A DNA stretch of 64,000 nucleotides from Candidatus Omnitrophota bacterium (GCA_016201735.1 JACQCH010000040.1:18822-82821); one strand, 5' to 3'; positions 21,959 to 57,185 are shown, numbered from the stretch's first letter. Notes: generated by a model from the sequence alone, not told the origin. A program made the numbers and translations.

Positions 21959-22007
21959 GAGGGTATCCTGCACCTTCCGATCCTTAGCCGATGCTCCAGG
22001 AATCCCT

Positions 22008-28646: not shown

Positions 28647-30243
28647 AGAGCAGGCCGTTCTTCCGTTGAAGGAAGAGGTCCATGCCCGGTGGATCGACCG
28701 ATACCGGGAGTTCGCCGATCTGGCGGACCGGATTATTCGGGAAAACCCCCAACGGGCGGTCCTGGCCATTCCGCTGCTTCGTCCAAGACATTGGCCTCCT
28801 CCCAACCAGTTGAAGGTGCTGGATCAATGGGTCCGCGGCGAGGTGAGAATTCCATCCCTGCGGAGCTTGCTCAAGGAGTGGCTCTGGAGTTTGGCCTTTG
28901 CCACTCGAGATACGGTCAGCCTCCTTTTGGCTCAATGGATCACTTGGCCTTTCTTCAGCAGGATGAAAAAAAGGCCGGTGGATCTGTTGATCAAATCGTG
29001 GGGATTCGACTGCCGCAGCTTGGGAGGAGCCGACTTTTACTTTGGAACACTGACGGATCAGCTCGGGGACAGGGGCTTGCGCACCCTGCTTTTGATCGGA
29101 GTCGGATTGGGAAGGTTCGATCCCAATTTCGGTCTGGCGGTCGCGGTCTTTCGAAAGAGCCGCTTCGGGGCTATTCCGGAGTCGGTGCTGATCCCCTGGT
29201 GGGCTCCTTGGAACGTCGCCTTCCAACAGCTGTCTGCCGGGATCGCACTGCGCCGGAGGGCGAATGAGGCCGCCGACCCGAAGATGCAAATCCTTTTGGC
29301 GGCGGCGTGTCGGAACGCCGTTCAGCCGGGTGCCCTGCGGAGCCATCTTTCATTTTATTGGAGCCGCCGGGCGGTCCGCCGATGGAAGCCTAAGGTGTTT
29401 ATGTCTCTCTATGAGGGACAGCCCTGGGAACAGATGGCTTGGGCTGGAGTGAAGGCGTCGGATCCGGACTGTGTGACGGTCGGCTTCCAGCACACCGTCG
29501 TGCTGCCCCATTCCTTGGCCGTTCTTTCTCCCCCTTTGAATTCTCGAGACCCTTCCGCCCCTGAGGTGGTCCTCTGTTTGGGAGAAGCCACTCGAAGGAT
29601 GCTCCAACCCGGCCATGCCCGGAAGGGAACCCGTCTGGTTCTCTTCGGCTCTTTTCGGAGGAGCTCCGGATCATGGGATGAGAACTCTCTGCCCAACCCC
29701 GGGCGCCGGACCGTTCTGGTGTTGCCTGAAGGGATCCCCGAAGAAGTGAAGATCCTGTTCCACTTCGCCACTCGATGCGCCGCGGCCCTGCCCGATGTCC
29801 GGTTCCTGTTCCGATGTCATCCGTTCTTGCCGTTCGATTTAGTCCGTCCCTATCTGGAGATCGTGCCGGAGGATTTTCCAAACATCGAGATTTCTCGGGA
29901 ACCAGCGATTTTAAACGATTTCAAACGGGCCTCGGCGATCCTGTATCGGGGCTCTTCGGCGGTGTTGTATGGTATCCTGGAAGGGCTTAAACCGATCTAC
30001 CTGGATTTAGGAGACGGCCCCGAGGTGGATCCCCTGTTTGAGATGGGCCAGTGGAGAGAGAGGGCCGGTTCGGTCCAGCAGATGGAAGAGGTTCTTCAGC
30101 GGTACGAGGAAGCTTCTTCAGAGGATCTCACCCGGTCTTGGCAGGCGGCGTATGCTTACGTGAACAGCTATTCCCAGCCGGTGGACGAGGGATCCATTGA
30201 CCGATTCCTTCAGGCCCTCGATGAAGCCCGCAGGGGCTCCTAA
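28624..30243 (+). CDS. Hypothetical protein with TagF/KpsS-like GT-B C-terminal features
   Basis: 539 aa. C-terminus 'FRCHPF...AILYRGSSAVLYGILEGLKPIYL' resembles the CDP-glycerol glycerophosphotransferase / capsule-biosynthesis GT-B C-terminal domain. Weak call. Confidence 0.4.
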   Translation: MSLEISSEEQAVLPLKEEVHARWIDRYREFADLADRIIRENPQRAVLAIPLLRPRHWPPPNQLKVLDQWVRGEVRIPSLRSLLKEWLWSLAFATRDTVSLLLAQWITWPFFSRMKKRPVDLLIKSWGFDCRSLGGADFYFGTLTDQLGDRGLRTLLLIGVGLGRFDPNFGLAVAVFRKSRFGAIPESVLIPWWAPWNVAFQQLSAGIALRRRANEAADPKMQILLAAACRNAVQPGALRSHLSFYWSRRAVRRWKPKVFMSLYEGQPWEQMAWAGVKASDPDCVTVGFQHTVVLPHSLAVLSPPLNSRDPSAPEVVLCLGEATRRMLQPGHARKGTRLVLFGSFRRSSGSWDENSLPNPGRRTVLVLPEGIPEEVKILFHFATRCAAALPDVRFLFRCHPFLPFDLVRPYLEIVPEDFPNIEISREPAILNDFKRASAILYRGSSAVLYGILEGLKPIYLDLGDGPEVDPLFEMGQWRERAGSVQQMEEVLQRYEEASSEDLTRSWQAAYAYVNSYSQPVDEGSIDRFLQALDEARRGS

Positions 30244-39077: not shown

Positions 39078-39317
39078 ATGGATCCGGCTCAAAGATTAAA
39101 AGAGACCATCTCCCGATACTGGAACCTGCCGGCGGAGCAGATCGATTGGGACATGGAATTCAACGACCGCAGGCTCGCGGCTTTCTCTTCGCTGCGGATG
39201 CTCCGTTTTTTGGCCAGCGTGGAGGAGCAGTTTCAGATCAACATCCAGGATTCGGATGCGGTCAAACGGTTCAAAGACCTCTGGATCCTTGTGGAGGGCA
39301 GATGCTCCGGCTCATAA
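39078..39317 (+). CDS. Acyl carrier protein
   Basis: 79 aa. '[24 protein letters not shown]' fits the ACP helix II pattern with Ser in the 'DSL' position. Immediately downstream of the PPTase. Confidence 0.6.
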
Positions 39318-40024
39318 AAAAGAGCGCCCATCTCCCGTTTCGTTGGGCCTTCTTTAAGAGACTCGAAGGCCGGGTTGAGATTGGAAAGGCCTGCCGGGTC
39401 CCTTTTCATAACATCCGTTTCACCGTGCGCCGCTTGGTGGTCGGCGACTACGTCCGGTTTGGGGACCGGCTGTTCCTACAGGGAAACTCCTTCGTCTTCG
39501 GGAACCACTTCTTCTGCGGACCGGATGTTCAAATCACAGGGGTGGGCGGGACCTTTGAGGTGGGCAAATTCAGCTCCTTTGGATCGGACGTCCGGTTCCT
39601 CTTGGGCAAAGGAAATCATCGGATCCACTCCCTGTCCAGTTTTCCCTTCGGTAATCTGCCTCAGTTTGATGAGCCGGGATGGAGAGAGGCCTTTGCCCAC
39701 GAAGAGGAATCGAACACCTTCTGCAAGGTGGGGAATGACGTCTGGATTGGGATCGGAAGCGTGATCCTCCCCAACGTCACCATCGGGCATGGGGCCATCG
39801 TCACCGCCGGATCGGTGGTGACCGCCGACGTGCCCCCCTACGCCGTGGTGGGGGGGAATCCGGCGCAGATTATTTGCTTTCGATTCAAACAGATTCTGAT
39901 TCAGGAGCTTTTGGAAATCTGCTGGTGGGACTGGCCGGTGGAGAAGATCCGTCGGAACAAATCGTTCTTCACCCGGAACCTGTCCACCCGAACTTCTCTG
40001 GAATCCGTGGAGATCGCCCCCTAG
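39302..40024 (+). CDS. Hexapeptide-repeat (left-handed beta-helix) acyltransferase
   Basis: Internal ATG 39302 overlaps the ACP stop. Repeats '[31 protein letters not shown]'. The ORF 39146 5' extension across the ACP gene is rejected. Confidence 0.65.
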
Positions 40025-40025
40025 G

Positions 40026-41867
40026 ATGTCGGACCTGGCCGCGTTGAAACAAAAAATTCTTCAGGTGATGGCGGAGGCCTCCGAATCGGACGCCGCCTAC
40101 GTCCAGGCGGCGGACCTCCTCCAGGGAGCGTCTCTCGAAGGGCTCCCCCCGCTGCGGCTGGCGGTCCTGCGCTCCTTCACCATTGAACCCCTGATCGAGG
40201 TCTTGAAGGTTAAGCTCTTCCTCGAAGGATACCGGCTCGAACTGTTTTTGAACGAGTTTAACCAGGTGGAGCAGGAGATCCTCGATCCTCAGAGCCGGTT
40301 TTACCGGTTCTCTCCCCAAGTCGTTTTCTTGGCCGTCCGGCTGGAGGAACTGTGCCCGGCTCTGTTGAAGGGGAGATCCCGCTTGAGTCCCCCGCAGTTG
40401 GAGGAGATGGAGAAGGAGGTTCTCTCAACCCTTTCCGGCTGGATTGAGATGATGATCCGTCAGGGAATACCCAACTTCCTGCTTTCCAACTTCTTGGTTC
40501 CTCCCGCGGGACCCCAGGGGATTTTCGACCTCCAGACTCCCGCCGGCCAGATCCCGGTGATCCGCCGACTGAATTTAAAACTCCTCTCCCTGCGGGAACC
40601 GTTTCCGCAGATGATTCTTTTTGACCTGGAGTTGTTGGCCTCCGGCCTGGGCAAAGCTCAGTTCCTGGATCCGCTTCAGTATTATCGGATGTCCAATCCG
40701 TACGCCCTGTCTGCCTATCCGGCCTATGGGGAATTCCTGTTGAGACATCTGAAAGCCCTGCTGGGCCACCGCCGGAAATGCCTCGTGTTAGACCTGGACG
40801 ACACCCTTTGGGGAGGGGTCCTCGGGGAGGAGGGAATCCAAGGGGTGAAACTCTCCGACACCTATCCTGGAAACTGCTACAAGGATTTCCAGAAGGGCCT
40901 TCTGGAGCTTCACGACCGGGGGATCTTGTTGGCCGTCAACAGCAAAAACAATCTTGACGAGGCATTGGCGATGATCCGGACTCACCCGGAGATGATCCTC
41001 CGGGAGGAGTCCTTCAGCGCCGTTCGGATCAACTGGAAGGACAAGGCCGAAAACCTTCTGGAGATCGCCCAGGAGCTGAACCTGGGGCTGGATGCGTTCG
41101 TCTTCATGGACGATAGCCCTGCGGAATGTCAGAGAATCCGGGAGGCCTTCCCGGAAGTGATGGTCGCTGAGCTGTCCAAGCAGGCGCATCGGTTCCGATC
41201 GGTCCTGGAGAACTTGGGCTGTTTCGAACAGATCGCACTGACTCCCGAGGATCGGTCCCGGACCGATTTGTACCGAACTCAAGGACAGCGGCAGAAACTT
41301 GCCTCACAGTCCGGGAATCTGGAGGAGTTTTACGCGGGCCTGAAGATGTGCGCCACGCTGTACCGCAATGATCCCCGTCATGTTTCCCGGATCGCCCAGA
41401 TCACTCAGAAAACCAATCAGTTTAATCTCACCACGCGGCGATACACCGAATCGGAGATCCTCCGATTCATGAAGCAAGGAATGGTGTACGCCCTCCGGCT
41501 GGAGGACCGGTTCGGGGACAACGGAATTATCGCCGCCGCTATTGTTCTTCCCAAGGGTACGAGTGGAGAGTGGGTCATTGATTCGTTTCTCATGAGCTGC
41601 CGGGTGATCCTGCGGACCGTTGAGGATACCTTCCTGGGGATCATCGCTCAGGAGGCGGAAGAAGCGGGCAAAAAACAATTGGTCGGAATCTACCTCCCTA
41701 CGGCTCGCAACGGCATGGTGAATGAATTTTATCTCAAGCGAGGGTTCCGACTGCGGCGGCAAGAGCCTTCCGGTGAGATGGAATACCTCCTGGAGCTGGG
41801 TGGTCCAGAGGGGGTGAGGCCTTCCCCTTGGATCCAGCTTAAAACAGAGGTGGAGATCCCCCGGTGA
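40026..41867 (+). CDS. FkbH-like HAD-superfamily protein (glyceryl-ACP-forming phosphatase/transferase family)
   Basis: 'CLVLDLDDTLWGGVLGEEG' is the HAD motif I, which is the FkbH signature. 613 aa, consistent with FkbH-domain proteins. Confidence 0.7.
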   Translation: MSDLAALKQKILQVMAEASESDAAYVQAADLLQGASLEGLPPLRLAVLRSFTIEPLIEVLKVKLFLEGYRLELFLNEFNQVEQEILDPQSRFYRFSPQVVFLAVRLEELCPALLKGRSRLSPPQLEEMEKEVLSTLSGWIEMMIRQGIPNFLLSNFLVPPAGPQGIFDLQTPAGQIPVIRRLNLKLLSLREPFPQMILFDLELLASGLGKAQFLDPLQYYRMSNPYALSAYPAYGEFLLRHLKALLGHRRKCLVLDLDDTLWGGVLGEEGIQGVKLSDTYPGNCYKDFQKGLLELHDRGILLAVNSKNNLDEALAMIRTHPEMILREESFSAVRINWKDKAENLLEIAQELNLGLDAFVFMDDSPAECQRIREAFPEVMVAELSKQAHRFRSVLENLGCFEQIALTPEDRSRTDLYRTQGQRQKLASQSGNLEEFYAGLKMCATLYRNDPRHVSRIAQITQKTNQFNLTTRRYTESEILRFMKQGMVYALRLEDRFGDNGIIAAAIVLPKGTSGEWVIDSFLMSCRVILRTVEDTFLGIIAQEAEEAGKKQLVGIYLPTARNGMVNEFYLKRGFRLRRQEPSGEMEYLLELGGPEGVRPSPWIQLKTEVEIPR

Positions 41868-43083
41868 CCATGAACTGCTGGCCGGTGGTATAAGCCGTAT
41901 ATGGAGAGGCAAGGATGAGGATGGCTTTTGCCACGTCCAAAGGCTGGCAGTTCCGCTTCATCGGGGTGGAATCGGCGATTCGCTGGAACGCCTGGTCGGA
42001 AAGGGTGTTGGTCAAATCGGTGGGAGTGATGTTCGGAGTGACCAGGTTGACCCGGATGTTGCGCCCGGCATATTCGGCAGCGAGGGCACGGCTGAGACCA
42101 ACCAGTCCCGACTTGGAGGTGATGTACCGAACCTGGTGGGGAACCGGAGACTCCACGAAAACGGTGGAGACATTGACGATGTTTCCTCCTCCCTGGCGAA
42201 GCATCGAAGGGATCACCCCTTGACAGCACAAGAAGGCCCCTTTCACGGTCACGTTGAGTTCTTCCTGCAGGGCCTCCCAGGTCAGCTCTTCAAACCGCAG
42301 GGGGCTGGCATCGCGGACGGCGTTGTTGACCAGCACATCAATCCGCTTAAACTCCGCCAGGGTCTTCTCCACCATGGCCTCCACCTCGCTGGGGACCGAG
42401 ACGTCCGCGCCGACGGCGATGGCCCGCCGTTTGTGGGCGGTGATCTCCCGGACAATGGCTTCCGCGTCCGATTTTCCGTTCCGGTAATTCACCACGACGT
42501 TGGCGCCGCGCGAGGCGAACAGCTTAGCCGTCGTCTCGCCGATCCCCCGGCTGGCCCCCGTGATCAGGACGGTCCGATCGGTGAAATCCAGGTTCAAATC
42601 CAGATCTTGAAGTTCAGACATGGTGACTCCTTTTTTTGCCGGGGGAGAGACGTAGACCTCGATCTTTCCCTCCGTGATCGGTTGTTGCGTCGAGAGATTC
42701 GTCAACAAAACGTGGAGCTTGATGATCCTTGTTCCGATGCTCTTGGACACCACCCGGCCCGAAACCCGAATCCGATCCCCGATGCGCGCGGGAGCCAAAA
42801 AGGAGGCTTCCACCCCCAAGAGGATGGCGTTTTTACCGGGAAGAACCATCCCCACCATGGCCGAGAGGGCGGTGAAGGGAAGCATCCCGTGGACCACCCG
42901 CCCCCGGAAACGGCTGCGTCTTGCAAATTCGGAATCCAGGTGCAAGTCGGAGAAATCCCCTGACAGATGGGCAAAGCTCTGCACATCCTGCTCCTCCACC
43001 AAGAGATCGAACTGGGCCTTGAGGTCCACCTCAATCTCTTCGAGCGTGTAGGAATTGTGCCGCATCTCCGAGAGGATTTGCAT
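41839..43083 (-). CDS. MaoC-like (hotdog) dehydratase fused to FabG-like 3-oxoacyl reductase (SDR)
   Basis: N-terminus 'SGDFSDLHLDSEFA' is the MaoC motif. C-terminus 'VLITGASRGIGETTAKLFASRGANVVV' and 'YITSKSGL' are SDR motifs. The only minus-strand gene in the window. Confidence 0.7.
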   Translation of the reverse strand: MQILSEMRHNSYTLEEIEVDLKAQFDLLVEEQDVQSFAHLSGDFSDLHLDSEFARRSRFRGRVVHGMLPFTALSAMVGMVLPGKNAILLGVEASFLAPARIGDRIRVSGRVVSKSIGTRIIKLHVLLTNLSTQQPITEGKIEVYVSPPAKKGVTMSELQDLDLNLDFTDRTVLITGASRGIGETTAKLFASRGANVVVNYRNGKSDAEAIVREITAHKRRAIAVGADVSVPSEVEAMVEKTLAEFKRIDVLVNNAVRDASPLRFEELTWEALQEELNVTVKGAFLCCQGVIPSMLRQGGGNIVNVSTVFVESPVPHQVRYITSKSGLVGLSRALAAEYAGRNIRVNLVTPNITPTDLTNTLSDQAFQRIADSTPMKRNCQPLDVAKAILILASPYTAYTTGQQFMVTGGSPPLF

Positions 43084-44897: not shown

Positions 44898-46276
44898 AGA
44901 TTCGAAACCTTCTGATCGGTTTAGGAGGAGCCTTGGGGTTGTGGATGACCTTTTCACCTGGGTCTTTATTTATTTTTTTTATGGCTGCCGGAACCGGCGG
45001 ACTGCTCTGGAGGTGTAGCCATCCGGAAGATCGCCGATTTCTTCTGGCCCTGTTCTTGGCCGGGTTTCTCATCCGGTGCATGGTGTCGCTCAGCTTGGAT
45101 GGATTGGCCTTCTATGTTGAAAGGGGCCGGCCGTTCCAGAAAGGTCAGGCCATGGAATCCGGGATCGAGATCTTTGACCATACTCGGCGCTCGATACAGA
45201 TGGGGGACAGCGACTATTACTCCGAACGGGGATACGCCCTGGCCCAACACGCCAAAGGGACACTCTCCTCCCTTCCTGCTTCTTACCGGGCCGAATATGG
45301 GCGCAGCGGCTATCTCCACATCATCGGAGCCTTCTACTACCTCTTTGATTTTAGCCCAATTGCCGTGAAGTTCATCAACTGCCTGTTGGGGGCCTTGTTG
45401 GGGCCCATTCTGTTTTACCTCGGAAAGGAATGTTTCTCTAGAGAGGTGGCCCGCTGGGCCAGCGGGACGGCCAGTTTCTTTCCCTCTCTCATCCTCTGGT
45501 CGGCCAGCAATTTGAAAGATACCCTCCTGATTCTTTTGACCGGGTTGATCTTCCTTGTTTTTGTCAAGATCCGGAAGGCCTCCCAGTGGACCAAGACTCT
45601 GGGCGGCTCTGTGGTATTCGGCGGCTTGCTGGCCATTCATACGACGCTGCGCTCATCGGCCTACTCAATGCTGCTGGTCGGGGCCTTGCTCCTTTCGATC
45701 TTTTTCACAAGTCGGATTCGTCGGATCGTTAAGGGGGAATTCCTCTTTTTCCTGACGGCGGGATTGCTTTATTATCAGACCCATCTCAAGCGGTTCCTGG
45801 CGTCTCTTTTCCTAATCCATGTGGGGCATATCACCACTCAGGGAACCACCTACCGGTTCCTCCCGGACGAACTTTACATCCGTGAGATCCTGACGGCCTG
45901 GAGCCGTTCAAGTGGATGGGGCCTGTCCATTCTGTCCTGGGTGGGGAAGGCCCTGTTTCATTACCTTCTGGAACCTCTTCCCGGAAAGATCTCGGGCCTC
46001 TTTTTATCGCTGGCTTACCCTCAGACGATCCTCTGGTATCTTCTTCTACCGTTCATCATTTGGGGGGTGCTTCTTTCACTTCGATGGAATTTTCGTCGGT
46101 CCTTTTTTCTGGTCGGTTCACTGGGAGGATGGATTCTCCTAACCGCGCTGACCAGCGGCAACATCGGGACCGTCTTTCGGATGCGGGACATGGTGACGCC
46201 GTTTCTGTTCCTGTTCGGGTGGGTGGGGATTCGTCATTTCCTGAAAGGAGAAAGGCCGGATGCCGTGGGTGGATGA
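44894..46276 (+). CDS. Polytopic integral membrane protein (possible O-unit polymerase or GT-C-type)
   Basis: More than 10 hydrophobic segments, 460 aa, ATGA overlap. No diagnostic motif recognised. Confidence 0.45.
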   Translation: MKIRNLLIGLGGALGLWMTFSPGSLFIFFMAAGTGGLLWRCSHPEDRRFLLALFLAGFLIRCMVSLSLDGLAFYVERGRPFQKGQAMESGIEIFDHTRRSIQMGDSDYYSERGYALAQHAKGTLSSLPASYRAEYGRSGYLHIIGAFYYLFDFSPIAVKFINCLLGALLGPILFYLGKECFSREVARWASGTASFFPSLILWSASNLKDTLLILLTGLIFLVFVKIRKASQWTKTLGGSVVFGGLLAIHTTLRSSAYSMLLVGALLLSIFFTSRIRRIVKGEFLFFLTAGLLYYQTHLKRFLASLFLIHVGHITTQGTTYRFLPDELYIREILTAWSRSSGWGLSILSWVGKALFHYLLEPLPGKISGLFLSLAYPQTILWYLLLPFIIWGVLLSLRWNFRRSFFLVGSLGGWILLTALTSGNIGTVFRMRDMVTPFLFLFGWVGIRHFLKGERPDAVGG

Positions 46277-46289
46277 GAAGGGGCGTTTC

Positions 46290-47282
46290 ATGGGAAGGGT
46301 GAATCTGATCGATGCCCTGGCCGCCGCGGTTGGACTTCTCTTCCTTTTACCCATGGCCTATTACGGATACCGAAATCTCTCCGGATGGGATCTGGAGATC
46401 GAATCAGTCAATCCGGCGGTGATCCAGGCCGGAAAGGGGGGGGCCCTTTCCATCTTCGGAAGAAACTTTAACAAACAGTCTACCGTCCGGCTTGGAAACC
46501 ACCGACTGGCCGATCTCCTCTGCGACAAGCCAAGAAACATCCTGGCCAAAGTTCCTTCTTCTTTCCCTCCCGGACAATACCCACTGATCATCGAGAACCC
46601 ACAAGGGGGCAAGGCGGTCTTGGAGAAGGGGGTGGTGGTCGTGGGGAACCCGGTGATCCTGGAGGTCCAGCCGAAACGGTTCTTGGCAACTCAGGAAACC
46701 TTGGTGACGTTGACTGGAAAGAATTTTGATTCGGCTGGCACCGTCCGGGTAGGACCCCTCATTTTTTCGAAGGTTGAATTCCTCTCTCCGGAGCGCCTCC
46801 GGATAAAGATTCATCCGGAAGAGATCCTGCCCGGGAGATATCTTGTCTTCGTCGACGACCGTTACGGATACCGTTCCTCCGAGAAAATCCACATCGACGC
46901 GGTCGGCGGAGGGGTGGTCATTGCGGCGTTGATATGGGCAGACGAAAAACAATCCTCGCTGCTGAGATCCATCTGCGCCCAGTGGGAGAGCCGGCAGCCG
47001 GAACAGATTCGGATCGTGGATATTCTGGAGGGAGATCTTCCCACCAATCCAATTCCGGTCAAGGAACTCGGAAAGAAATCGGCTCTCATCGCGAATGTGG
47101 TTCTTCCGGATAGATTTCTGGAACTGGCTGACCCGATGACGTACCTGTACCAGGGGAAGCCCTTGGTCTATGGAGCTGACATTCTTTTACCCATGCCGGA
47201 GGTCACGCTAAAAGCAAAGGTCATCTCCAAACCGATTTCGTTAAGTTCCTATGATCGAAGAGCCTTTGAAAACTCTAACTAG
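46290..47282 (+). CDS. Membrane-anchored protein with two IPT/TIG-like Ig-fold domains
   Basis: N-terminal TM helix, then 'VNPAVIQAGKGGALSIFGRNF...VRLG' and 'VQPKRFLATQETLVTLTGKNFDSAGTVRVG', which are IPT/TIG-like. Confidence 0.4.
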   Translation: MGRVNLIDALAAAVGLLFLLPMAYYGYRNLSGWDLEIESVNPAVIQAGKGGALSIFGRNFNKQSTVRLGNHRLADLLCDKPRNILAKVPSSFPPGQYPLIIENPQGGKAVLEKGVVVVGNPVILEVQPKRFLATQETLVTLTGKNFDSAGTVRVGPLIFSKVEFLSPERLRIKIHPEEILPGRYLVFVDDRYGYRSSEKIHIDAVGGGVVIAALIWADEKQSSLLRSICAQWESRQPEQIRIVDILEGDLPTNPIPVKELGKKSALIANVVLPDRFLELADPMTYLYQGKPLVYGADILLPMPEVTLKAKVISKPISLSSYDRRAFENSN

Positions 47283-47605
47283 ACGGGATCTCCTGGCCGG
47301 CAGCCGCTTTGCCGCTTTCGTGCGGGGGCGGTTCACCCGATGGTCCAATCCCCCCCCCTGGCTCCGCCCTTTTCGAGAGGAGCTGCTTGGAGGAATCAGG
47401 CCCGCGCCGCTCAAAACCATTGGGATTGTTTTGGTGACGGCGATGCCGACCCATCTCTTGACAGCGATCCTTGCAGGCAAACCGCCCGGCGCCGTGAGAC
47501 TTGGGTTCCTAGGGCTGCTGTTTCTTCTTGGATGCTGGGGGTTGAGGGACAACCGCCCCTGGGGAAAAATCAGGGAAGGAAGCCTGCTCTTAAGGCGGCT
47601 GACGA

Positions 47606-50563
47606 ATGAGTAGAGGCCGGATCCTGTTCATTGCCACGCATCCGAAAGAGGTGGCCAGCACCCGATACCGAGTTTTGGCCTATCTCCCCGCTTTGGAGAA
47701 GGCCGGCTTTGAGGTCCAGGTGGAGCCGTTCTTCTCCTCAGAGGATTTGCAGGGGACCTATCGTCCCCAAGGACCGGATGGAAAAATGGGCAAGGTCCTG
47801 AAGGCCAGTTGGAAACGTTGGATGAAGCTGCGCCGCAGCAGCGCCGATCTGATCTTTATTCACCGGGAGCTGTTCCCCTGGGGGGTCGCCGGCGGGATGG
47901 CCCTTTTGTTTCCTCTTTTGAGAGAAAAGGGTCGCCCCCTCATTTACGATTTTGATGACGCGGTGTACCTCCCTCACCGGCAGCACCATCCGTTTCTGGG
48001 AAAACTGGAAAATCCGGCCAGCGTGAACCACCTGCTGACCGCCTGTCACCAGATCATCGCGGGAAATCTCCATCTGGCCCAGTACGCCCATCGGTGGAAC
48101 TCCCGTGTGGAGTATCTTCCCACGCCGGTGGATACCGACCGGCTTTTCCCCTCTTCCCGAATTCCAAAGACAACCCCCTGCACCATCGGCTGGATCGGCT
48201 CGCCCTTCACGGCTAAATACCTTGAGAGCCTTCTGCCGGCCCTGGATGCCTTGGCCCAGAAAAGGGCTTTCCGCTTAAAAGTTATCGGAGCGGGCAAGCC
48301 CATTCACCTGCACCATGCCCAGGTCGAAAACCGCCCTTGGAACCTGTTCACGGAAGCGGAGGAGTTTCGCAGCTGTGATATTGGAGTCTACCCCTTATGG
48401 GATGACGAATGGTCAAAAGGAAAGTGCGGTTTCAAGGCGCTCCAATTTATGGCCTCGGGCGTTCCCGTGGTGGCCTCTGCGGTTGGAATGAACGTCCAGA
48501 TCCTCCAACACGGCAAGAATGGGTTCCTCGCCAAAACCCCGGAGGATTGGCTTGCCCATCTTGCCCGGATGATCGACGACCCGTCTCTTCGACGGGAGAT
48601 GAGCCTGTCGGGGCGGCAGACGGTGGAAGAGGATTTCTCACTTCGCCGTCTGACCCCGCGATTTCTCCAGACCATTGAGAACACCTTGGATGGGAAAGCG
48701 AAGACGGCCTTCCCAGCCCTTCCTTCTGCGATGAGGGCCTCTTCGAAGCGCCATGCGATTCTCTGTTTTTCTTCGATTGACTGGGATTTCGTATGGCAGG
48801 GGCACCAGGAGATTATGAGCAGTCTGGCGGAACAGGGGCATCGTGTTCTGTTCATTGAAAACACGGGAGTGAGGAATCCCCGGTTCACGGATCTGCCTCG
48901 GATCAAACATCGGCTCCACCAATGGCGCTTCAGCCTTCAGGGGTTCCGGAGGGAGAATGAGAATCTGTACGTTTTCTCTCCCCTGGTGATTCCGTTTCCT
49001 TACTCCCGCCTGGCCCGCTGGATCAACCGATGGCTGCTGGCCTCGGCTCTCCAGCGTTGGGTGCGCTATATGGACTTCGACAAGCCGATCTGTTGGGTCT
49101 TTCTCCCGACCCCCATCACATGGGAGGTGAGCCGGGAGATCCCGTGCAAGGCCCTGATCTATTACTGCATCGACAGCTTTCCCGACAGCACCCCGGCGGC
49201 GCAGCGAATCGTCCCCAGCGAAGACCGGTTCCTCCATCAGGCGGATCTGGTGTTTGTGACTTCTCAGAAACTGTACGAGCGGGCCTCTCGGCAGAATCGC
49301 GAAGTGCATCTGTTCCCCTTCGGGGTCAATCTCGAAGTCTTCGATAGGGCTCGGAACCAACCGATGGAACCAATGGAAGAATTAAAGGATCTCCGTCGGC
49401 CGATCGTCGGGTACGTGGGAGGGGTTCACCAGTGGGTAGATCAAGAGCTGCTCGGCCGGTTGGCCCGCCGCTGCCGGAATTACTCCTTTGTCTTGGTCGG
49501 CCCTGCTCAGTCGGACACGGAACGCCTCCAGCGGGAGCCGAACATCTTTCTGCTGGGCCAAAAGCCTCACGACGAACTGCCTCGGTACTTGAAGGAATTT
49601 GATGTGGGGATCATTCCGTATCGGATCACCGAATACACTAAAAACGTCTACCCCACCAAACTCAACGAGTACCACGCCATGGGAAAGCCGGTGGTTTCCA
49701 CTCCTCTGCCGGAGGTCCTTTCCTTTAACCGGCGCTACGGGGATCTGGTTCGGATCGGATCCAATGAAGAAACGTTTCATGCCGCCATCGAGCGGGTCCT
49801 TCATGAGAACACCCCTCAACAGACCGAGCAGAGGATCCGAGCCGCTCAAGACAATTCCTGGAATTGCCGAATCGAGCAAATGCAGGCCCTTATCGAGAAG
49901 GCAATCGCTCGAAAGCAAACTCCAAGCGCGCAGGCCCCCCAGGAAAGGACCGCGGCCCGGTGGATCGTCCGTTCCTTTGCGGCGGCGGGACTCTTCGCCT
50001 TGGCCCTCTTCCACACCCCGATGGTTTGGTGGGTCGCAGAGTCCCTCACGGTGACCGCAGAGCCGCGGTCGGCCGATGCCATCGTGGTCTTTGCCGGTGG
50101 GGTCGGGGAATCCGGCGAGGTCAGCGAAGCGTATCAATACCGGGTCAAACAGGCAGTGGAGCTGTATCACCAGGGATATGCCCCAAAAATCCTCTATGTT
50201 TCCGGATACACCTGGACCTTCCGGGAGGCCGAAATCATGCGGCTTTTGACGGAGTCCCTGGAGGTGCCTTCAGAGAAGGTTTTGACGGAGACGGAAGTTA
50301 GAAACACCTATGATTATGTCCTTCATGTCAAAGAGCTCAGCCGTCGAAACCGATGGAAGACGATTCTGCTGGTCACCCCCTCCTACCATGCCCGTCGAGC
50401 CTGGCTGACCTTCGCCCGGAACGCTCCAGGCCTGACCGTGATTCCCGTCTCTGCCCGATCGAATTATTACACCCACCGGTGGGGAATCAGCCTGAGGCAG
50501 CTCAGAGGAATCCTCCAAGAATTCGTCAGCCTGGGCCTGTACAAGTGGAGGGGATGGATCTAA
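47606..50563 (+). CDS. Tri-domain protein: GT4 glycosyltransferase + second GT4-like domain + C-terminal DUF218 (YdcF/ElyC/SanA-like)
   Basis: 985 aa. First GT-B domain 'FMASGVPVVASAVGMN...'; second 'ILCFSSIDWDFVWQGHQE...PYRITEYTKNVYPTKLNEYHAMGKPVV'. C-terminus 'AIVVFAGGVG...ILYVSGYT...LLVTPSYHARRA' is DUF218. Confidence 0.6.
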   Translation: MSRGRILFIATHPKEVASTRYRVLAYLPALEKAGFEVQVEPFFSSEDLQGTYRPQGPDGKMGKVLKASWKRWMKLRRSSADLIFIHRELFPWGVAGGMALLFPLLREKGRPLIYDFDDAVYLPHRQHHPFLGKLENPASVNHLLTACHQIIAGNLHLAQYAHRWNSRVEYLPTPVDTDRLFPSSRIPKTTPCTIGWIGSPFTAKYLESLLPALDALAQKRAFRLKVIGAGKPIHLHHAQVENRPWNLFTEAEEFRSCDIGVYPLWDDEWSKGKCGFKALQFMASGVPVVASAVGMNVQILQHGKNGFLAKTPEDWLAHLARMIDDPSLRREMSLSGRQTVEEDFSLRRLTPRFLQTIENTLDGKAKTAFPALPSAMRASSKRHAILCFSSIDWDFVWQGHQEIMSSLAEQGHRVLFIENTGVRNPRFTDLPRIKHRLHQWRFSLQGFRRENENLYVFSPLVIPFPYSRLARWINRWLLASALQRWVRYMDFDKPICWVFLPTPITWEVSREIPCKALIYYCIDSFPDSTPAAQRIVPSEDRFLHQADLVFVTSQKLYERASRQNREVHLFPFGVNLEVFDRARNQPMEPMEELKDLRRPIVGYVGGVHQWVDQELLGRLARRCRNYSFVLVGPAQSDTERLQREPNIFLLGQKPHDELPRYLKEFDVGIIPYRITEYTKNVYPTKLNEYHAMGKPVVSTPLPEVLSFNRRYGDLVRIGSNEETFHAAIERVLHENTPQQTEQRIRAAQDNSWNCRIEQMQALIEKAIARKQTPSAQAPQERTAARWIVRSFAAAGLFALALFHTPMVWWVAESLTVTAEPRSADAIVVFAGGVGESGEVSEAYQYRVKQAVELYHQGYAPKILYVSGYTWTFREAEIMRLLTESLEVPSEKVLTETEVRNTYDYVLHVKELSRRNRWKTILLVTPSYHARRAWLTFARNAPGLTVIPVSARSNYYTHRWGISLRQLRGILQEFVSLGLYKWRGWI

Positions 50564-50566
50564 ACC

Positions 50567-52408
50567 ATGTGCGGGTTTGCCGGGATCATCCACTGGAACG
50601 GGGAAACGGTTTTTCCAGAGGAGCTGGGCCAAATGGCCGGGCGGATCCGGCACCGGGGCCCGGACCGATGGCAAACCGCTTTCCCTTCGAAGAACATCGG
50701 GTTGGCCCACACCCGGTTAAAAGTGATCGACCTCTCGGATGCCGCTGACCAGCCTATGGCGAACGACTCCAGAGAAATCTGGATTGTGTTCAACGGAGAG
50801 ATCTATAATTTCCGGGAGCTTCAGCGGGAACTTCGCGCAAAAGGTTTCCATTTCCGGAGCCAATCGGACACCGAGGTGTTTCTTCGGGCCTACGAAGCGT
50901 GGGGCGTGGAAGCGGTTCAGAAACTCGAGGGGATGTTCGCTGCAGCCATCTGGGATGGACGAACGCAGGAACTGTGGCTGATCCGGGACAGGGTGGGGAA
51001 GAAACCCCTGTTCTATTGGACCGACGGTCGATGCCTTGCGTTCGGGTCGGAGATCAAGGCGCTGCTGGCGCACCCGCATGTTCCGAATGAAATTCATGAA
51101 GAGATTATTTCCCATCTGTTGGCATTCGGGTACCCGCCGACCGGCCAGACCTGTTATCAGGGAATTCACCAGCTTCCCCCCGCAAGCGTCATCGGCTTGA
51201 GCCAGCGGAATCCTCTTGGAGGACCCAAGCCGTATTGGGATCTTTGTCTGAAGTCCTCTCACGCACCCGCTTCCGATAAAAAAGCGGCTATGGAACTTCG
51301 GGAGCTTCTCTCATCTGCAGTGGACCGCCGTCTTGTATCCGACGTCCCCCTGGGGGCGTTCCTCAGTGGAGGAATCGATTCAACGATCGTGGTAGGCTTG
51401 ATGTCCAAGAGGATCGCAGACCGTCCCGTGAAAACCTTCAGCATCGGTTTTTCTTCGGATCCCCGCTTCAACGAAACCCATTACGCCGAACTGGCGGCGA
51501 AACGATTTGGAACCCAGCATACAACGTTCACCGTTACACCTCAGTCGTTTGATCTGTTGGAGAAACTGGTTTGGCATTATGACCAGCCGTTCGGGGATTC
51601 CTCTGCCATCCCCATGTATCTGCTCTGCCGGTTAGCCCGTGAGCATGTCACCGTGGCCCTCTCTGGGGATGGAGGAGATGAGTCCTTCGCCGGATACGAC
51701 CGGTTCCTGGCCGCGCTCTGGGCCGATTTCCTGCCCCCCGGAGCATTGAACTGGGCCAGCCGCCTGGTGGAGATCCTGCCCACCGCGCATGAGCGCTCCT
51801 GGATGGCGCGGGCGAAACGATTCGCCGCGGTGTCCAGCCTGCCTCTGCCGGAACGGTACCTTCGTTTGTCCACCTATATCGATTATTCTTCGTCTCCCTC
51901 GATCGCACAGCTGTGGGAACGATCCAAGGGGTTGTCCCCGCTTTCCAGACTCCTCGATCTGAACTTCAAGGAATATCTCCCCAATGACTTGATGGTTAAG
52001 ACCGACCGATGCAGCATGGCTCATGGTTTGGAGGTTCGGTCACCGCTGCTGGACACTCCTTTGATCGAGTATGCGGCGGCGCTTCCCGACCGCTTCAAGG
52101 TCCGAGGGTGCCAAACCAAGGTATTATTGAAGAAGGCCTGCGCAGATCTGCTCCCACCAGAGATCCGAAATCGAAAGAAGATGGGCTTTGGCGTTCCTCT
52201 GGGAACCTGGTTTCGCCAACAGTGGCGGGAGCCACTCCAAGACACCTTGGGTTCCAGACAGGCAAGGGTGAACCGCTATTTGGAACCCTCTCGAATCCAG
52301 TCGCTCATCGACTCGCATCTGGAGGAGAAAGAGGATGCCGGCCATCGGCTGTGGCTCCTGATGACCCTTGAAGTTTGGCTGCGCCAAAGAGAAGGTTCCC
52401 AGGGATGA
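50567..52408 (+). CDS. Asparagine synthetase (glutamine-hydrolysing) family amidotransferase, second copy
   Basis: 'MCGFAGIIHWNGE' has the Cys2 nucleophile. 'SGGIDST' PP-loop. 613 aa. Confidence 0.8.
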   Translation: MCGFAGIIHWNGETVFPEELGQMAGRIRHRGPDRWQTAFPSKNIGLAHTRLKVIDLSDAADQPMANDSREIWIVFNGEIYNFRELQRELRAKGFHFRSQSDTEVFLRAYEAWGVEAVQKLEGMFAAAIWDGRTQELWLIRDRVGKKPLFYWTDGRCLAFGSEIKALLAHPHVPNEIHEEIISHLLAFGYPPTGQTCYQGIHQLPPASVIGLSQRNPLGGPKPYWDLCLKSSHAPASDKKAAMELRELLSSAVDRRLVSDVPLGAFLSGGIDSTIVVGLMSKRIADRPVKTFSIGFSSDPRFNETHYAELAAKRFGTQHTTFTVTPQSFDLLEKLVWHYDQPFGDSSAIPMYLLCRLAREHVTVALSGDGGDESFAGYDRFLAALWADFLPPGALNWASRLVEILPTAHERSWMARAKRFAAVSSLPLPERYLRLSTYIDYSSSPSIAQLWERSKGLSPLSRLLDLNFKEYLPNDLMVKTDRCSMAHGLEVRSPLLDTPLIEYAAALPDRFKVRGCQTKVLLKKACADLLPPEIRNRKKMGFGVPLGTWFRQQWREPLQDTLGSRQARVNRYLEPSRIQSLIDSHLEEKEDAGHRLWLLMTLEVWLRQREGSQG

Positions 52409-53610
52409 CCCTAGCCCTCCTGGCGCTCCTGCCGCGCCTGTGCCTCGTGGGATTCCGTTTACTGCAGGGACAGCCGCCTGATCTTTATGAGTACGATGAC
52501 CTTGCCCGGAATCTGCTGGCGGGGAAAGGATATCTTTATTTTCATTACGGAACGCCGTATCTGGGTTTTCACAGCTCTTTTCCTTACGTTTTTTTGACCG
52601 CTTTCATCTACCGACTGACCGGCTTTTCTCAAACGGCGGTCTTGATGGTTCAGTGCCTCATGGGCGCCGCCTTGGCCTTTGTGATCCGCTCACTGGGAAT
52701 TCGGATCGTTGGAAAGCAGGGAGGGGGATTCGCCGGAACCCTCACCGCCCTTCATCCAGGTCTGCTTTATTACGACACCCATAAACTGCATCCCTTAAGT
52801 TTCGACGCCTTGGCGGTGGCCTGCGCGACGCTTGCCCTCTGGCAGCTCTTCACGGCTCCTTCTCTTCGACGATTCGCTGCGGCCGGTTTTTTAAGTGGCC
52901 TGGCCCTGCTGGAGAGAGGGACTTTTATCCCCGTTATCCCGGTTTGTGTGGCCGTTCTTTTTTGGAAATCTGAAAATAAACGGGCTGTTTTCCGAGGCAC
53001 CCTGGTCTTTTTCGTGGGCTTGAGTTTCCTGACGGCTCCCTGGATCCTAAGAAACAATCGAATCTTTGGCGTCCCGGTGCTGATGACGACCATCGGCGAA
53101 CATCTCTGGCGCGGAAATAATCCGAATGCCACAGGAACTTCCTTGACACGGGAAGGGATGCCGATGATCCAGACCGCGGATCCAAGATTCCAGGAGCAGC
53201 TGAATTCACTCCATGAGATGGGGCAGATGCGGCTCTTTCTCGATGCGGGGAGGCGCTACATCGCCGAACACCCTGGGCGGTTCGTTAAAAATATCGTGAA
53301 ACGGGTCTTCTATTTTTTCTGGTTTTCCCCAACGGCCGGCGCCCTCTACCCTGCATGGGCTTTCGTCGTCTACCGAGCCTACTACGCAGCCATGCTTCTA
53401 TTTGCGGGCTGGGGGATGGCGTCCCTCCACCGACAGCAGCGGATGGGGCTGTTCCTCGTGGGAGGGGTCTGGCTCTGCGTGGGTCTTATGCAGAGCTTCT
53501 TCTACGTTGAAACCCGCCACCGGTGGGGCGTGGAAGGGCTGATGCTCATTTTTTCGGCGGCAGGAATTCTTCGTTTCTATGAGCTTGGAAAAACCTCAAC
53601 CAACCCCTGA
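52405..53610 (+). CDS. GT-C-type membrane glycosyltransferase (ArnT/PMT family 39/83-like)
   Basis: ATGA overlap. About 11 TM segments; N-terminal loop 'YEYDDLARNLLAGKGY' is a DE-like motif typical of GT-C. Confidence 0.45.
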   Translation: MTLALLALLPRLCLVGFRLLQGQPPDLYEYDDLARNLLAGKGYLYFHYGTPYLGFHSSFPYVFLTAFIYRLTGFSQTAVLMVQCLMGAALAFVIRSLGIRIVGKQGGGFAGTLTALHPGLLYYDTHKLHPLSFDALAVACATLALWQLFTAPSLRRFAAAGFLSGLALLERGTFIPVIPVCVAVLFWKSENKRAVFRGTLVFFVGLSFLTAPWILRNNRIFGVPVLMTTIGEHLWRGNNPNATGTSLTREGMPMIQTADPRFQEQLNSLHEMGQMRLFLDAGRRYIAEHPGRFVKNIVKRVFYFFWFSPTAGALYPAWAFVVYRAYYAAMLLFAGWGMASLHRQQRMGLFLVGGVWLCVGLMQSFFYVETRHRWGVEGLMLIFSAAGILRFYELGKTSTNP

Positions 53611-54313
53611 ACTTTCCGTCGTCATCCTTTGTTATCAGGAACAAGATCGGATCCCTGAACGCCTGGAACAGATCGAGGCTGAGGTTCGAGCACTGGGGAT
53701 TCCCTATGAAATCATCCTGGTGGTGAATTACTTTCCGGACCGACAGGACCGGTCTCCTCAGATTGCCCTCGAGCTGGGAAGGAAGAATCCCCGGATTAAA
53801 CCGATCGTGAAGCCAAAAGAGGGGATGATGGGCTGGGACATGCGGATGGGTTTGGAAGCCGCCCGAGGAGACCTGTTGGCCGTCTTGGATGGAGATGGCC
53901 AGATTCCTCCCAACGATATCGTAAGGGTCTACCGGGAGCTGCGCGCCCGAGATCTGGACGTTTGCCAGACGTTCCGGGCAAAACGGGAGGATGGACGGGT
54001 CCGAACACTGATCTCCCGGATTTACAATAGCCTCTTTCGCATTTTGTTTCCGGGCACTCCGGTCCACGACGTGAACGCCAAACCCAAGATCATGAAGCGA
54101 GAGGCCTATCAGCTCCTGCGGCTAAGCTCCAGAGACTGGTTCATTGATGCGGAGATTCTGATTCAGGCCCGCTGGAACCGGCTGAGGATCGGGGAGATTC
54201 CCTCGGTCTTCGGAAAAAGCCACGGGAGGGCTTCTTACATAACAGGAATCACCCTGTTGGAATTCATCAAGAACCTGATTTTGTTCCGCATCCGGGAGTT
54301 CAGCCGGCGGTGA
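53579..54313 (+). CDS. GT2 polyprenyl-phosphate sugar synthase (ArnC/GtrB/DPM1-like)
   Basis: 'LSVVILCYQEQDRIPERL', 'VNYFPDRQDRS' and 'DGDGQ'. Short (244 aa), no membrane tail, which is typical of DPM1-like enzymes. Confidence 0.6.
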   Translation: MSLEKPQPTPELSVVILCYQEQDRIPERLEQIEAEVRALGIPYEIILVVNYFPDRQDRSPQIALELGRKNPRIKPIVKPKEGMMGWDMRMGLEAARGDLLAVLDGDGQIPPNDIVRVYRELRARDLDVCQTFRAKREDGRVRTLISRIYNSLFRILFPGTPVHDVNAKPKIMKREAYQLLRLSSRDWFIDAEILIQARWNRLRIGEIPSVFGKSHGRASYITGITLLEFIKNLILFRIREFSRR

Positions 54314-56240: not shown

Positions 56241-57185
56241 ATGGCCCGAGATTCAAAAGCCCTCGCCGCCTTGACCCGCGCGCGGATCCCGCATGTGGAG
56301 GAATACTACGACCTGTTGGAATATGAAACAGCCCCTCTGGGGGGGTACCGGTTACGCCGGAATCAACGGTTGCCGCATGTGACCATCAACGAAAATGGCT
56401 ACCGTGGAAAACCCTTGAGCGGCTCGGAGACGATTCTGCTGCTGGGGGATTCGGTCACCTTTGGGGTGGGGGCCTCCTCCGATCATGCTTGTTTTTCCCG
56501 TTTCCTGGAAGCCGTCAGCCAGCAGCCGACTGCCGATGCATCCGTTCGTGCCTATCGGGTCTCTCAACATTACGGCCGACTCCCCATTCTGCTTCAGCAG
56601 TTGCCCATGCTTCAACAGGTATTTCTTTGGTGTGGCTATGTCGATTTGGTGTTTTGGGTGATTTCTGGTGGTTCGATCGAGGGAGCTTTCCATTTCGGGC
56701 AGAAGTACGCCGCGGGCTCTTCTCGAGTCGGAATCTCAGCTTATTGGATGAGATTCCTCCAAAAGGTCCATCGGGGCAGGCCGGCCGTTTCAAACTCGGA
56801 ACCGGAAGCGGGAACTTTAGAAGAGCTGGTGACCCAGGTGATGACCCATATCCGCGCCATACGGGATCTTCTCACCGCAAGGGGAATTGATTTTTCGGTT
56901 CTGCTGCAGCCTTTTATCCGGACGAGGCCCAAGGAGCCCCAGTTGCAGTTCATCCTAGACGGCTATGATCAAAAGGCCCGGGAGAAATTCGGTACCGGCT
57001 GGTACGATCTGTCGGACCGGTTTATCGATCTTTTCCGGAGTGAGTTGCAACAGAACGTTCCAGATCATTGGGTCGATTGCCAATCCTTCGTGACAGAGTC
57101 CGATTTCCTGGATCAGGTGCATCTCAAGGAAGGGGCGGCAGAGAAAATTGCCCGTTGCGTGGTTCAGAAGCAGTTCAGCATCTGA
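56241..57185 (+). CDS. SGNH/GDSL hydrolase-like protein
   Basis: 'ILLLGDSVTFGVGA' (block I GDS) and a late 'DQVHLKE' (possible DxxH). Weak. Confidence 0.4.
   Translation: MARDSKALAALTRARIPHVEEYYDLLEYETAPLGGYRLRRNQRLPHVTINENGYRGKPLSGSETILLLGDSVTFGVGASSDHACFSRFLEAVSQQPTADASVRAYRVSQHYGRLPILLQQLPMLQQVFLWCGYVDLVFWVISGGSIEGAFHFGQKYAAGSSRVGISAYWMRFLQKVHRGRPAVSNSEPEAGTLEELVTQVMTHIRAIRDLLTARGIDFSVLLQPFIRTRPKEPQLQFILDGYDQKAREKFGTGWYDLSDRFIDLFRSELQQNVPDHWVDCQSFVTESDFLDQVHLKEGAAEKIARCVVQKQFSI

Follow-up and report, generated by a model that had tools for sequence, protein, structure and literature searches.

What does a DUF218 domain do when it is built into the same polypeptide as two glycosyltransferases? 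The question is raised by a gene of Candidatus Omnitrophota bacterium (GCA_016201735.1), located in a stretch of 64,000 nucleotides (JACQCH010000040.1:18822-82821; hereafter, the window) and coding for a protein of 985 amino acids (aa) with two glycosyltransferase (GT) domains, GT1 and GT2 (the latter not to be confused with the GT2-family enzymes mentioned below), a predicted transmembrane (TM) helix and a C-terminal DUF218 domain (Table 1). In enterobacteria, the DUF218 proteins ElyC and SanA affect how permeable cells are to antibiotics, as well as the synthesis of peptidoglycan and of enterobacterial common antigen (ECA). An earlier note on this DNA had pointed out that the biochemical role of DUF218 is unresolved, which still holds in papers from 2025-2026 (PMC12176290, PMC13251401), and that the fusion could help to assign it; our analysis supports this second idea. 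With a probability of around 0.55, we favour that the DUF218 part is a pathway-dedicated, ElyC/SanA-like module that would act on, or sense, the flipped lipid-linked glycan made by the GTs of its own polypeptide.

The tri-domain fusion is genuine

The gene is a single unbroken open reading frame (ORF) from its ATG to the stop codon at 50561-50563. Its product is 100% identical to the NCBI protein of a Candidatus Omnitrophica metagenome-assembled genome (MAG; P0001), the N-termini of its homologues agree with its own, and it contains the three peptides (VVFAGGVG, YVSGYT and VTPSYHARRA) by which the DUF218 domain had been recognized. Pfam, fold searches and an AlphaFold2 (AF2) model from a 115-sequence alignment all confirm the proposed order of a GT4-like, a second GT4-like and a DUF218 domain. 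The model has three confident domains, with a mean predicted local distance difference test score (pLDDT) of 89.1, and low confidence is limited to aa 373-379, 774-781 and 833-837, of which the first two are inter-domain linkers. The earlier note had guessed the two junctions at approximately 48700 and 49850; the first is at around 48722-48742, where pLDDT falls below 50, and the second, made up of the linker and the TM helix, at around 49925-50047.

Adjacent genes for a GT, another GT and a DUF218 protein could also have been joined by a frameshift or by mis-assembly, an artefact that had been named as what would refute the fusion; the gene does come from a MAG and, in at least one other genome (L011, see below), GT1 and GT2-DUF218 are indeed separate genes. 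However, the full three-domain architecture is continuous in at least 26 protein clusters of 41-61% identity and 98-100% coverage (5.8 billion proteins searched), which come from independent assemblies and projects (NCBI, ENA, JGI and Logan). Five further tri-domain loci, each in a single frame, appeared among 80 GTDB species genomes (here and below, locus statistics refer to the best 80 of 214 matching GTDB species genomes, L014-L093, with neighbours obtained with a crude ORF caller and tblastn). Moreover, the linkers vary in sequence and yet stay open in every case, and GT2 adjoins DUF218 in 79 of the 80 loci. This conservation of the full architecture across homologue clusters and GTDB loci rules out the artefact for the family and, because full-length homologues occur in independent assemblies, makes it very unlikely for the copy in the window; as an explanation of the protein we give it next to no credence.

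The DUF218 domain shares key residues with SanA and ElyC

At 78.7 bits (E 5e-22; gathering threshold 27.6), PF02698 matches aa 824-973 with nearly its entire length, 131 of the 133 positions (1-131), and a separate AF2 model of the DUF218 part reached a pLDDT of 88.9 and a predicted template modelling score (pTM) of 0.85. Its best fold match in the Protein Data Bank (PDB), found by Foldseek at E 1.8e-6 and with a query TM-score of 0.59, is YdcF (3CA8), followed by generic Rossmann-like and HUP-type folds (RecA, universal stress proteins and PPAT). Searches against PDB sequences, both with the single sequence and with a profile, retrieved nothing relevant and did not detect YdcF.

Residues G831, G832, G834, E874, T901, H928, R931, E972 and Y979 are invariant in 115-118 relatives, with T901, H928 and R931 each found in 118 of 118, and R846 is nearly so (114/118). 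A hidden Markov model (HMM) of the family detects ElyC (2e-14), SanA (2e-11) and YdcF (6e-8). A four-sequence MAFFT alignment with these three proteins was unreliable, and we used instead the family HMM and an --add alignment, in which R69, T125, H149 and R152 of SanA align to R846, T901, H928 and R931, sharing these columns with R108, T165, H189 and R192 of ElyC; E182 of SanA probably corresponds to E972. These are residues of consequence: SanA mutants T125A, H149A and E182A do not complement (PMC12176290), and R69E, R152E and E182R lose function (PMC13251401). Judged from the alignments, the domain is a SanA/ElyC-type DUF218 that appears to keep everything known to matter for function. It is not an orthologue of ElyC, scoring 20.4 bits with the ElyC equivalog NF007794, whose cutoff is 205. 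We also looked for an amphipathic helix like that of SanA, and the hydrophobic moment of the C-terminal helix was unremarkable (muH 0.38); a search for a second DUF218 domain in the 64-kb window found none.

GT2 and DUF218 form a widespread two-domain family

Both GT domains classify as GT4-type enzymes of the GT-B class, with Pfam matches above threshold and the two-Rossmann GT-B fold. Glyco_trans_1_4 (103 bits, E 2e-29) and Glycos_transf_1 (77 bits) match two stretches each, the first at aa 193-338 of GT1, which also contains Glyco_transf_4 at aa 27-179, and the second in the middle domain, GT2. From aa 534 to 761, GT2 aligns to positions 147-382 of the NCBIfam model TuaH (NF047676; E 1.3e-36); since the alignment is confined to the C-terminal 60% of this model, and the score of 126 bits is below the equivalog cutoff of 550, GT2 is best described as TuaH-like, and not as TuaH. 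The PEP-CTERM/XrtA GT models were not reached either (stp1, TIGR03087, 56 vs. 317 bits; stp3, TIGR04063, 53 vs. 442 bits), and a single-sequence query with GT2 retrieved no sequence homologue from the PDB. Residues invariant in GT2 among 115 relatives include C387, D392, W393, Q398, E418-G421, K685 and E703.

The list of homologues is dominated by a form of ca. 613 aa that covers aa ~383-985 and whose N-termini fall, in the alignment, exactly in the GT1/GT2 linker; indeed, at aa 383 the number of aligned sequences rises from about 26 to 113-115. A pattern scan using one genome per species found these two-domain relatives encoded in at least 214 GTDB species genomes, almost all of them MAGs, mainly of Omnitrophota and Acidobacteriota/Vicinamibacterales and with scattered carriers in Nitrospira, Methylomirabilota, Dehalococcoidia and others. 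In the 79 contiguous loci, GT2 is directly upstream of DUF218, sharing its frame in 77. Together, the comparisons indicate that the ancestral, conserved unit is a 'TuaH-like GT – TM – DUF218' protein of ca. 613 aa, to which the N-terminal GT would be an add-on, and that GT2 is the invariant partner of DUF218.

In two loci (L039 and L073), the tblastn segments of GT2 and DUF218 are in different frames, with an offset of 2, which might be due to a frameshift, a sequencing error or a pseudogene.

The earlier note had described the architecture as unusual, and this holds for the additional N-terminal GT, which is restricted by lineage and fused in some Omnitrophota, but not for the fusion of a GT with DUF218, given its presence in so many species. 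We found no paper discussing a GT-DUF218 fusion; annotation pipelines, on the other hand, already label the architecture with names such as 'YdcF family protein' or 'glycosyltransferase / YcdF'. The component families are known ones, and the tri-domain form elaborates, in a lineage-specific way, on a two-domain family that is widespread and unstudied.

GT1 is a separate GT, probably with a variant active site

More than 2000 homologues of GT1, which is modelled at high pLDDT, were detected at E<=1e-15; those among the matches listed are mostly standalone proteins of ca. 365 aa. The possibility that GT1 and GT2 are tandem duplicates was rejected, because BLASTP gives just a 38-residue match (E 0.004); from this comparison, the two domains appear to be non-paralogous and to have only their fold in common.

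Of the two GT domains, GT1 is the likeliest to be catalytically dead, in which case it would serve as a scaffold or acceptor-binding module and the protein would be effectively mono-functional. Gly/Lys and Gln replace the two Glu of the canonical EX7E motif, since Gln280 sits opposite the second of them (the 'EAMA' Glu) in a phmmer alignment to 7fg9 and there is no Glu eight residues upstream in the translation; a Gln also occupies the position of a third conserved Glu. Nevertheless, in an alignment of the best 120 of the more than 2000 homologues these substitutions are strictly conserved alongside many invariant polar residues (R20, R22, R87, E88, D115, D117, D118, N154, D258, K273, K277, N296 and R337), and YDFDDA and GKCGFK are a signature of GT1's own. 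Such a pattern, in a family of mostly standalone proteins, is typical of active enzymes with a variant active site, and a dead GT1 seems to us rather unlikely.

GT and DUF218 domains are predicted on opposite sides of the membrane

Two segments passed a hydropathy screen, aa 282-300 and aa ~786-811; the latter is the sole plausible membrane span, because the former lies inside the GT1 fold. AF2 models helices at aa 779-803 and 806-814, and the hydrophobic segment is kept in the 115 relatives, with a median Kyte-Doolittle value of 1.86 and a single such segment per protein in 98 of them. Lys and Arg are more frequent on its N-terminal flank (5.0) than on its C-terminal flank (1.5). Because of this positive-inside bias, the GT domains are predicted to be cytoplasmic, as enzymes using nucleotide-sugars must be, and DUF218 to be periplasmic. 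A periplasmic location of DUF218 has been published for SanA and ElyC (PMC3879167, PMC12176290, PMC13251401). The predicted membrane helix, which the earlier note had overlooked, makes one of its two suggestions, a direct channeling of substrates between GTs and DUF218, unlikely.

Channeling would be allowed if DUF218 were cytoplasmic, like YdcF, with the hydrophobic segment acting as a peripheral or re-entrant anchor and the domain modifying a sugar or nucleotide-sugar beside the GTs by, for instance, chemistry dependent on S-adenosylmethionine (SAM). YdcF is described as a cytoplasmic, SAM-binding protein (cited in PMC3879167 and PMC12176290), it is the best structural match of the domain, and the hydrophobicity of the window protein's own segment is modest. 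In profile comparisons, however, the domain is closer to ElyC and SanA than to YdcF, which has Cys and Met in the columns of the conserved Thr and His. In addition, the helix is conserved, with ca. 20-25 residues and a strong positive-inside asymmetry, and standalone relatives consist of a TM helix and DUF218, like SanA (e.g. P0259). We consider a cytoplasmic DUF218 quite improbable.

Origin of the fusion and other fusion partners

Cluster L011 contains a standalone GT1 orthologue (55% identity) and, separated from it by one gene, a two-domain gene (47% identity) followed by asnB, and it is from this arrangement that we deduce an origin of the tri-domain protein by fusion of cluster neighbours. 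A canonical GT4 gene precedes the two-domain gene in about 20 of 69 loci. The GT4 genes beside the two-domain genes of L003 and L004 were considered as GT1 orthologues and discarded, their matches being weak (E 1e-4 to 1e-7).

The tri-domain homologues (P0002-P0030) contain two types of GT1, ca. 55% and 37% identical to that of the window, and two types of GT2 (ca. 60-68% and 45-49%), while their DUF218 domains are roughly 38-60% identical. All four combinations of GT1 and GT2 types occur, which indicates domain-level reassortment; swapping of modules in this manner is to be expected where surface-glycan loci are variable.

Other N-terminal additions to the two-domain unit are a polysaccharide deacetylase (P0044 and P0059) and a methyltransferase (P0068), mirroring genes that adjoin the two-domain gene elsewhere. 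An exhaustive HMMER scan of 1.84 billion representatives with the TM+DUF218 part retrieved 402 clusters at E<=1e-10, and the best 150 of these comprise GT fusions of ca. 600-630 aa, fragments, and standalone TM+DUF218 proteins of ca. 190-230 aa. A complete protein of 514 aa (P0340) joins a GT-A enzyme of the GT2-family to the same TM+DUF218 module, which is standalone in P0259 (210 aa); both have the same TM and a 'TPxxWF' motif. The former protein implies that the cytoplasmic glycan-assembly enzymes to which this DUF218 subfamily has been joined are of more than one kind, and all the fusion partners found are glycan-assembly enzymes.

The gene is part of a surface-glycan cluster

Glycan biosynthesis appears to occupy the entire window (64 kb) and, judging from the gene content, the tri-domain gene sits in a large surface-glycan cluster of the lipopolysaccharide (LPS)/O-antigen/extracellular polysaccharide (EPS) type. 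Elsewhere, too, the gene usually lies among glycan genes. The window encodes NeuB, a UDP-GlcNAc 2-epimerase, cytidylyltransferases, HisF/HisH-like proteins, many sugar dehydratases/epimerases and methyltransferases, several GT2-family enzymes, two GT-C (PMT_2) enzymes, two GT9 heptosyltransferases, a WecA-like initiating enzyme and a fusion of Wzy_C with GT4.

Table 1. Features of the tri-domain gene and of other genes in the window (positions counted from the first nucleotide of the window).
Feature	Position	Strand	Basis
Whole gene, GT / GT / TM / DUF218 protein of 985 aa	47606..50563	+	ORF list, translation
GT1, GT-B / GT4-like glycosyltransferase, aa 1-372	47606..48721	+	Pfam, phmmer to 7fg9, AF2
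GT1/GT2 linker, variable, low confidence, aa 373-382	48722..48751	+	AF2 pLDDT, alignment occupancy
GT2, TuaH-like GT-B glycosyltransferase, aa 383-772	48752..49921	+	NCBIfam TuaH, alignment
Predicted single TM helix and short conserved 'TPxxWW' helix, aa 779-814	49940..50047	+	Hydropathy, AF2
DUF218 domain, predicted periplasmic, aa 824-982	50075..50551	+	Pfam PF02698, alignment, fold search
AsnB-like glutamine amidotransferase, immediately downstream	50567..52408	+	Pfam Asn_synthase + GATase_7
PMT_2 (GT-C, ArnT-like fold family) and small GT2-family enzyme, weakly ArnC-like	52375..54313	+	Pfam, NCBIfam
TIG/DUF4330 protein ('choice-of-anchor Z' repeat)	46260-47282	+	Pfam
120-aa ORF, no family match	47251-47613	+	Overlaps gene start by 8 nt
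Second AsnB-like protein	2079-4097	+	
Hexapeptide acyltransferase	39146-40024		
FkbH_N-like protein, 613 aa	40026-41867		
MaoC-dehydratase + short-chain dehydrogenase fusion	41839-43083	-	
WecA/MraY-type phosphoglycosyl transferase (PF00953) + CoA_binding_3/PglD_N, 598 aa	57210-59006	+	
Wzy_C/O-antigen-ligase-like + GT4 fusion, 827 aa	58955-61438	+	
Six ORFs without Pfam match, 314-735 aa	15766-17820, 19442-20653, 20729-21958, 21876-24083, 28624-30243, 56241-57185	+	

The AsnB-like protein encoded next to the tri-domain gene is nearest to the XrtA/PEP-CTERM amidotransferase model TIGR03108 (578 bits, cutoff 817), and a gene of this kind is directly downstream in all four Omnitrophota loci examined (L001, L008, L009 and L010). 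In the GTDB loci, it was found within 10 kb in 49 of 80, and directly downstream in 18 of 67. The window has a second AsnB-like paralogue, and both are nearest to the XrtA/PEP-CTERM model and below its cutoff.

Further downstream, the PMT_2 enzyme and the small GT2-family enzyme, the latter a weak match to the NCBIfam ArnC model (55 bits against a cutoff of 529), have counterparts of the same kinds downstream of the two-domain gene in L004; as far as family matches can tell, the pair suggests a module that would make a polyprenyl-phosphate sugar and transfer it in the periplasm. Upstream, the TIG/DUF4330 gene and the small ORF also precede the tri-domain gene of L008 as a pair (9043-10001), and a 116-aa ORF (7654-8004) precedes the standalone GT1 homologue in L013. 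In other loci, a GDSL/SGNH-type acylhydrolase is the first downstream gene (10 of 74), carbamoyltransferases (3 of 69) and polysaccharide deacetylases (5 of 69) occur upstream of the two-domain gene, and PMT_2 genes also recur in its vicinity.

Several other genes of the cluster merit mention in their own right. The 827-aa protein, with a polytopic Wzy_C/O-antigen-ligase-like region (aa 213-347) and a canonical, stp2-like GT4 (aa 442-799), is another membrane-spanning glycan-assembly fusion. The 598-aa protein, also present in L004 (21090-end), is an odd hybrid of two classes of initiating enzymes: NCBIfam aligns its CoA_binding_3/PglD_N region to WbaP/WcaJ-type enzymes over their non-catalytic N-terminal half, without their Bac_transf catalytic domain. 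The MaoC-dehydratase fusion is the sole minus-strand gene identified among those examined in a cluster that is otherwise co-directional, and adjoins the FkbH_N-like and acyltransferase genes. Finally, the six ORFs without identifiable family had no Pfam match at E<=1e-4 (E<=1e-3 for 56241-57185).

A proposed role for the DUF218 domain

The protein is multifunctional and of the inner membrane, with two GT-B domains, one predicted TM helix and DUF218. In the model that we favour, the GT domains would extend an oligosaccharide, linked to polyprenyl diphosphate, by two sugars on the inner side of the membrane; this glycan might contain uronic acids, to be later amidated by the adjoining AsnB-like enzyme. 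After flipping, the same lipid-linked intermediate would be bound at the outer face by the pocket of DUF218, with the Arg, Thr, His, Arg and Glu residues whose mutation abolishes the function of SanA. The domain would then either process the intermediate enzymatically or report its level to the attached GTs, such that the protein would be a built-in, pathway-dedicated ElyC/SanA control over glycan flux dependent on undecaprenyl phosphate (Und-P). Catalysis is slightly favoured over sensing, because the invariant Thr/His/Glu and Arg set is common to lineages that would make different glycans.

Several observations weigh against this picture. The full-length model has a pTM of only 0.58, so that the relative placement of the domains, whose packing was a point of interest in the earlier note, is uncertain. 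The EX7E acidic residues are absent from GT1, and GT2 keeps the motif in part, as Asn680...Glu688, conserved in its family. The TM segment of the window protein is only moderately hydrophobic (Kyte-Doolittle 1.5), the association with AsnB-like genes is frequent and not universal, and the correspondence of E182 with E972 derives from the likeness of the motifs IREF and LQEF, which the automatic alignment did not pair. Last, neither a substrate nor a reaction has been defined for any DUF218 protein (PMC12176290, PMC13251401, PMC12212991), and we can only infer that DUF218 acts on a flipped lipid-linked glycan.

The domain might instead be a non-catalytic periplasmic sensor or anchor that binds a soluble or lipid-linked product and tunes the GTs allosterically, or merely localises them. 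ElyC has been described as a feedback regulator that answers to periplasmic cyclic ECA (ECA-CYC; PMC12212991, PMC8609368), arguments on the abundance of SanA leave binding open (PMC13251401), and a covalent link through a single TM helix looks like a transmembrane signalling device. On the other hand, the invariant Thr/His/Glu, the two Arg and the GGxGE loop, kept in 115-118 sequences and common to SanA and ElyC, resemble an active site more than a ligand-specific sensor, since the sensed glycans must differ between lineages; and a single TM helix is a weak allosteric conduit unless the protein oligomerises. We thus regard a purely non-catalytic role as doubtful, although by no means negligible.

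Returning to a DUF218 that acts on the product of its own GTs, the fusion is a classical Rosetta-stone clue, which suggests that the business of DUF218 is in a lipid-linked glycan pathway, on the far side of the membrane. More tentatively, DUF218 proteins might in general act in the periplasm, as enzymes or as tight binders, with a specificity for polyprenyl-diphosphate-linked glycan intermediates that have been flipped, and in this family would have been hard-wired repeatedly to the GT that builds their substrate, either a TuaH-like GT-B or a GT-A GT2-family enzyme, with or without an additional GT, deacetylase or methyltransferase. If so, the fusions would identify the substrate class for the whole ElyC/SanA superfamily and offer a self-contained system for finding its biochemical activity. 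The carriers are uncultured, being known from MAGs, and a fusion by itself does not reveal chemistry; nevertheless, a GT and DUF218 in one protein make a tractable construct, with predictions on topology, point mutants and binding of undecaprenyl-diphosphate-linked glycans.

Comparison with known systems

A similar layout is that of SanA from Escherichia coli (SfiX in Salmonella), in which a single N-terminal TM helix is followed by a periplasmic DUF218 domain, as predicted for the window protein. SanA acts in the periplasm (PMC12176290). However, it has no preceding enzyme, whereas the window protein has ca. 780 residues, predicted to be cytoplasmic and with two GTs, before the TM helix; their DUF218 domains are remote in sequence, and SanA is tied to peptidoglycan and lipid II (PMC12176290, PMC13251401), unlike a gene from an LPS/EPS-type cluster.

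By profile score, the nearest E. coli paralogue is ElyC (YcbC), also with a periplasmic DUF218, although ElyC has a pair of TM helices and is not fused to an enzyme, compared to the single predicted TM helix and two GTs of the window protein. ElyC controls one Und-P-dependent glycan, phosphatidylglycerol-linked ECA (ECA-PG; PMC8609368), for which a post-transcriptional feedback by periplasmic cyclic ECA has been proposed (PMC12212991, PMC8609368); this control of a single glycan resembles the dedicated pathway that we propose. YdcF shares the fold with the DUF218 domain, but it is cytoplasmic and soluble, and has neither the Thr nor the His of the SanA triad. To our knowledge, its structure (3CA8) is the only one solved for a DUF218 protein.

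Among GTs, TuaH, which participates in teichuronic acid synthesis in Bacillus subtilis, resembles GT2 only over the aligned stretch and far below the equivalog cutoff, and we know of no TuaH-type enzyme described with a TM and DUF218 extension. The top structural matches of the full model include the GT4 GT-B enzymes MshA, BshA, PimA and PglA (TM-score on target <=0.75), whose GT-B fold is found in both GT domains, but without the complete EX7E pair. The top Foldseek match of the full-length model was Cps3D from Actinobacillus pleuropneumoniae (8qoy), which, like the window protein, carries several glycan-assembly modules on one polypeptide. Nevertheless, in Cps3D and in the two fusions encoded elsewhere in the window (WecA-like and Wzy_C-GT4) the catalytic domains joined are cytoplasmic, whereas the last module of the window protein is predicted to lie across the membrane.

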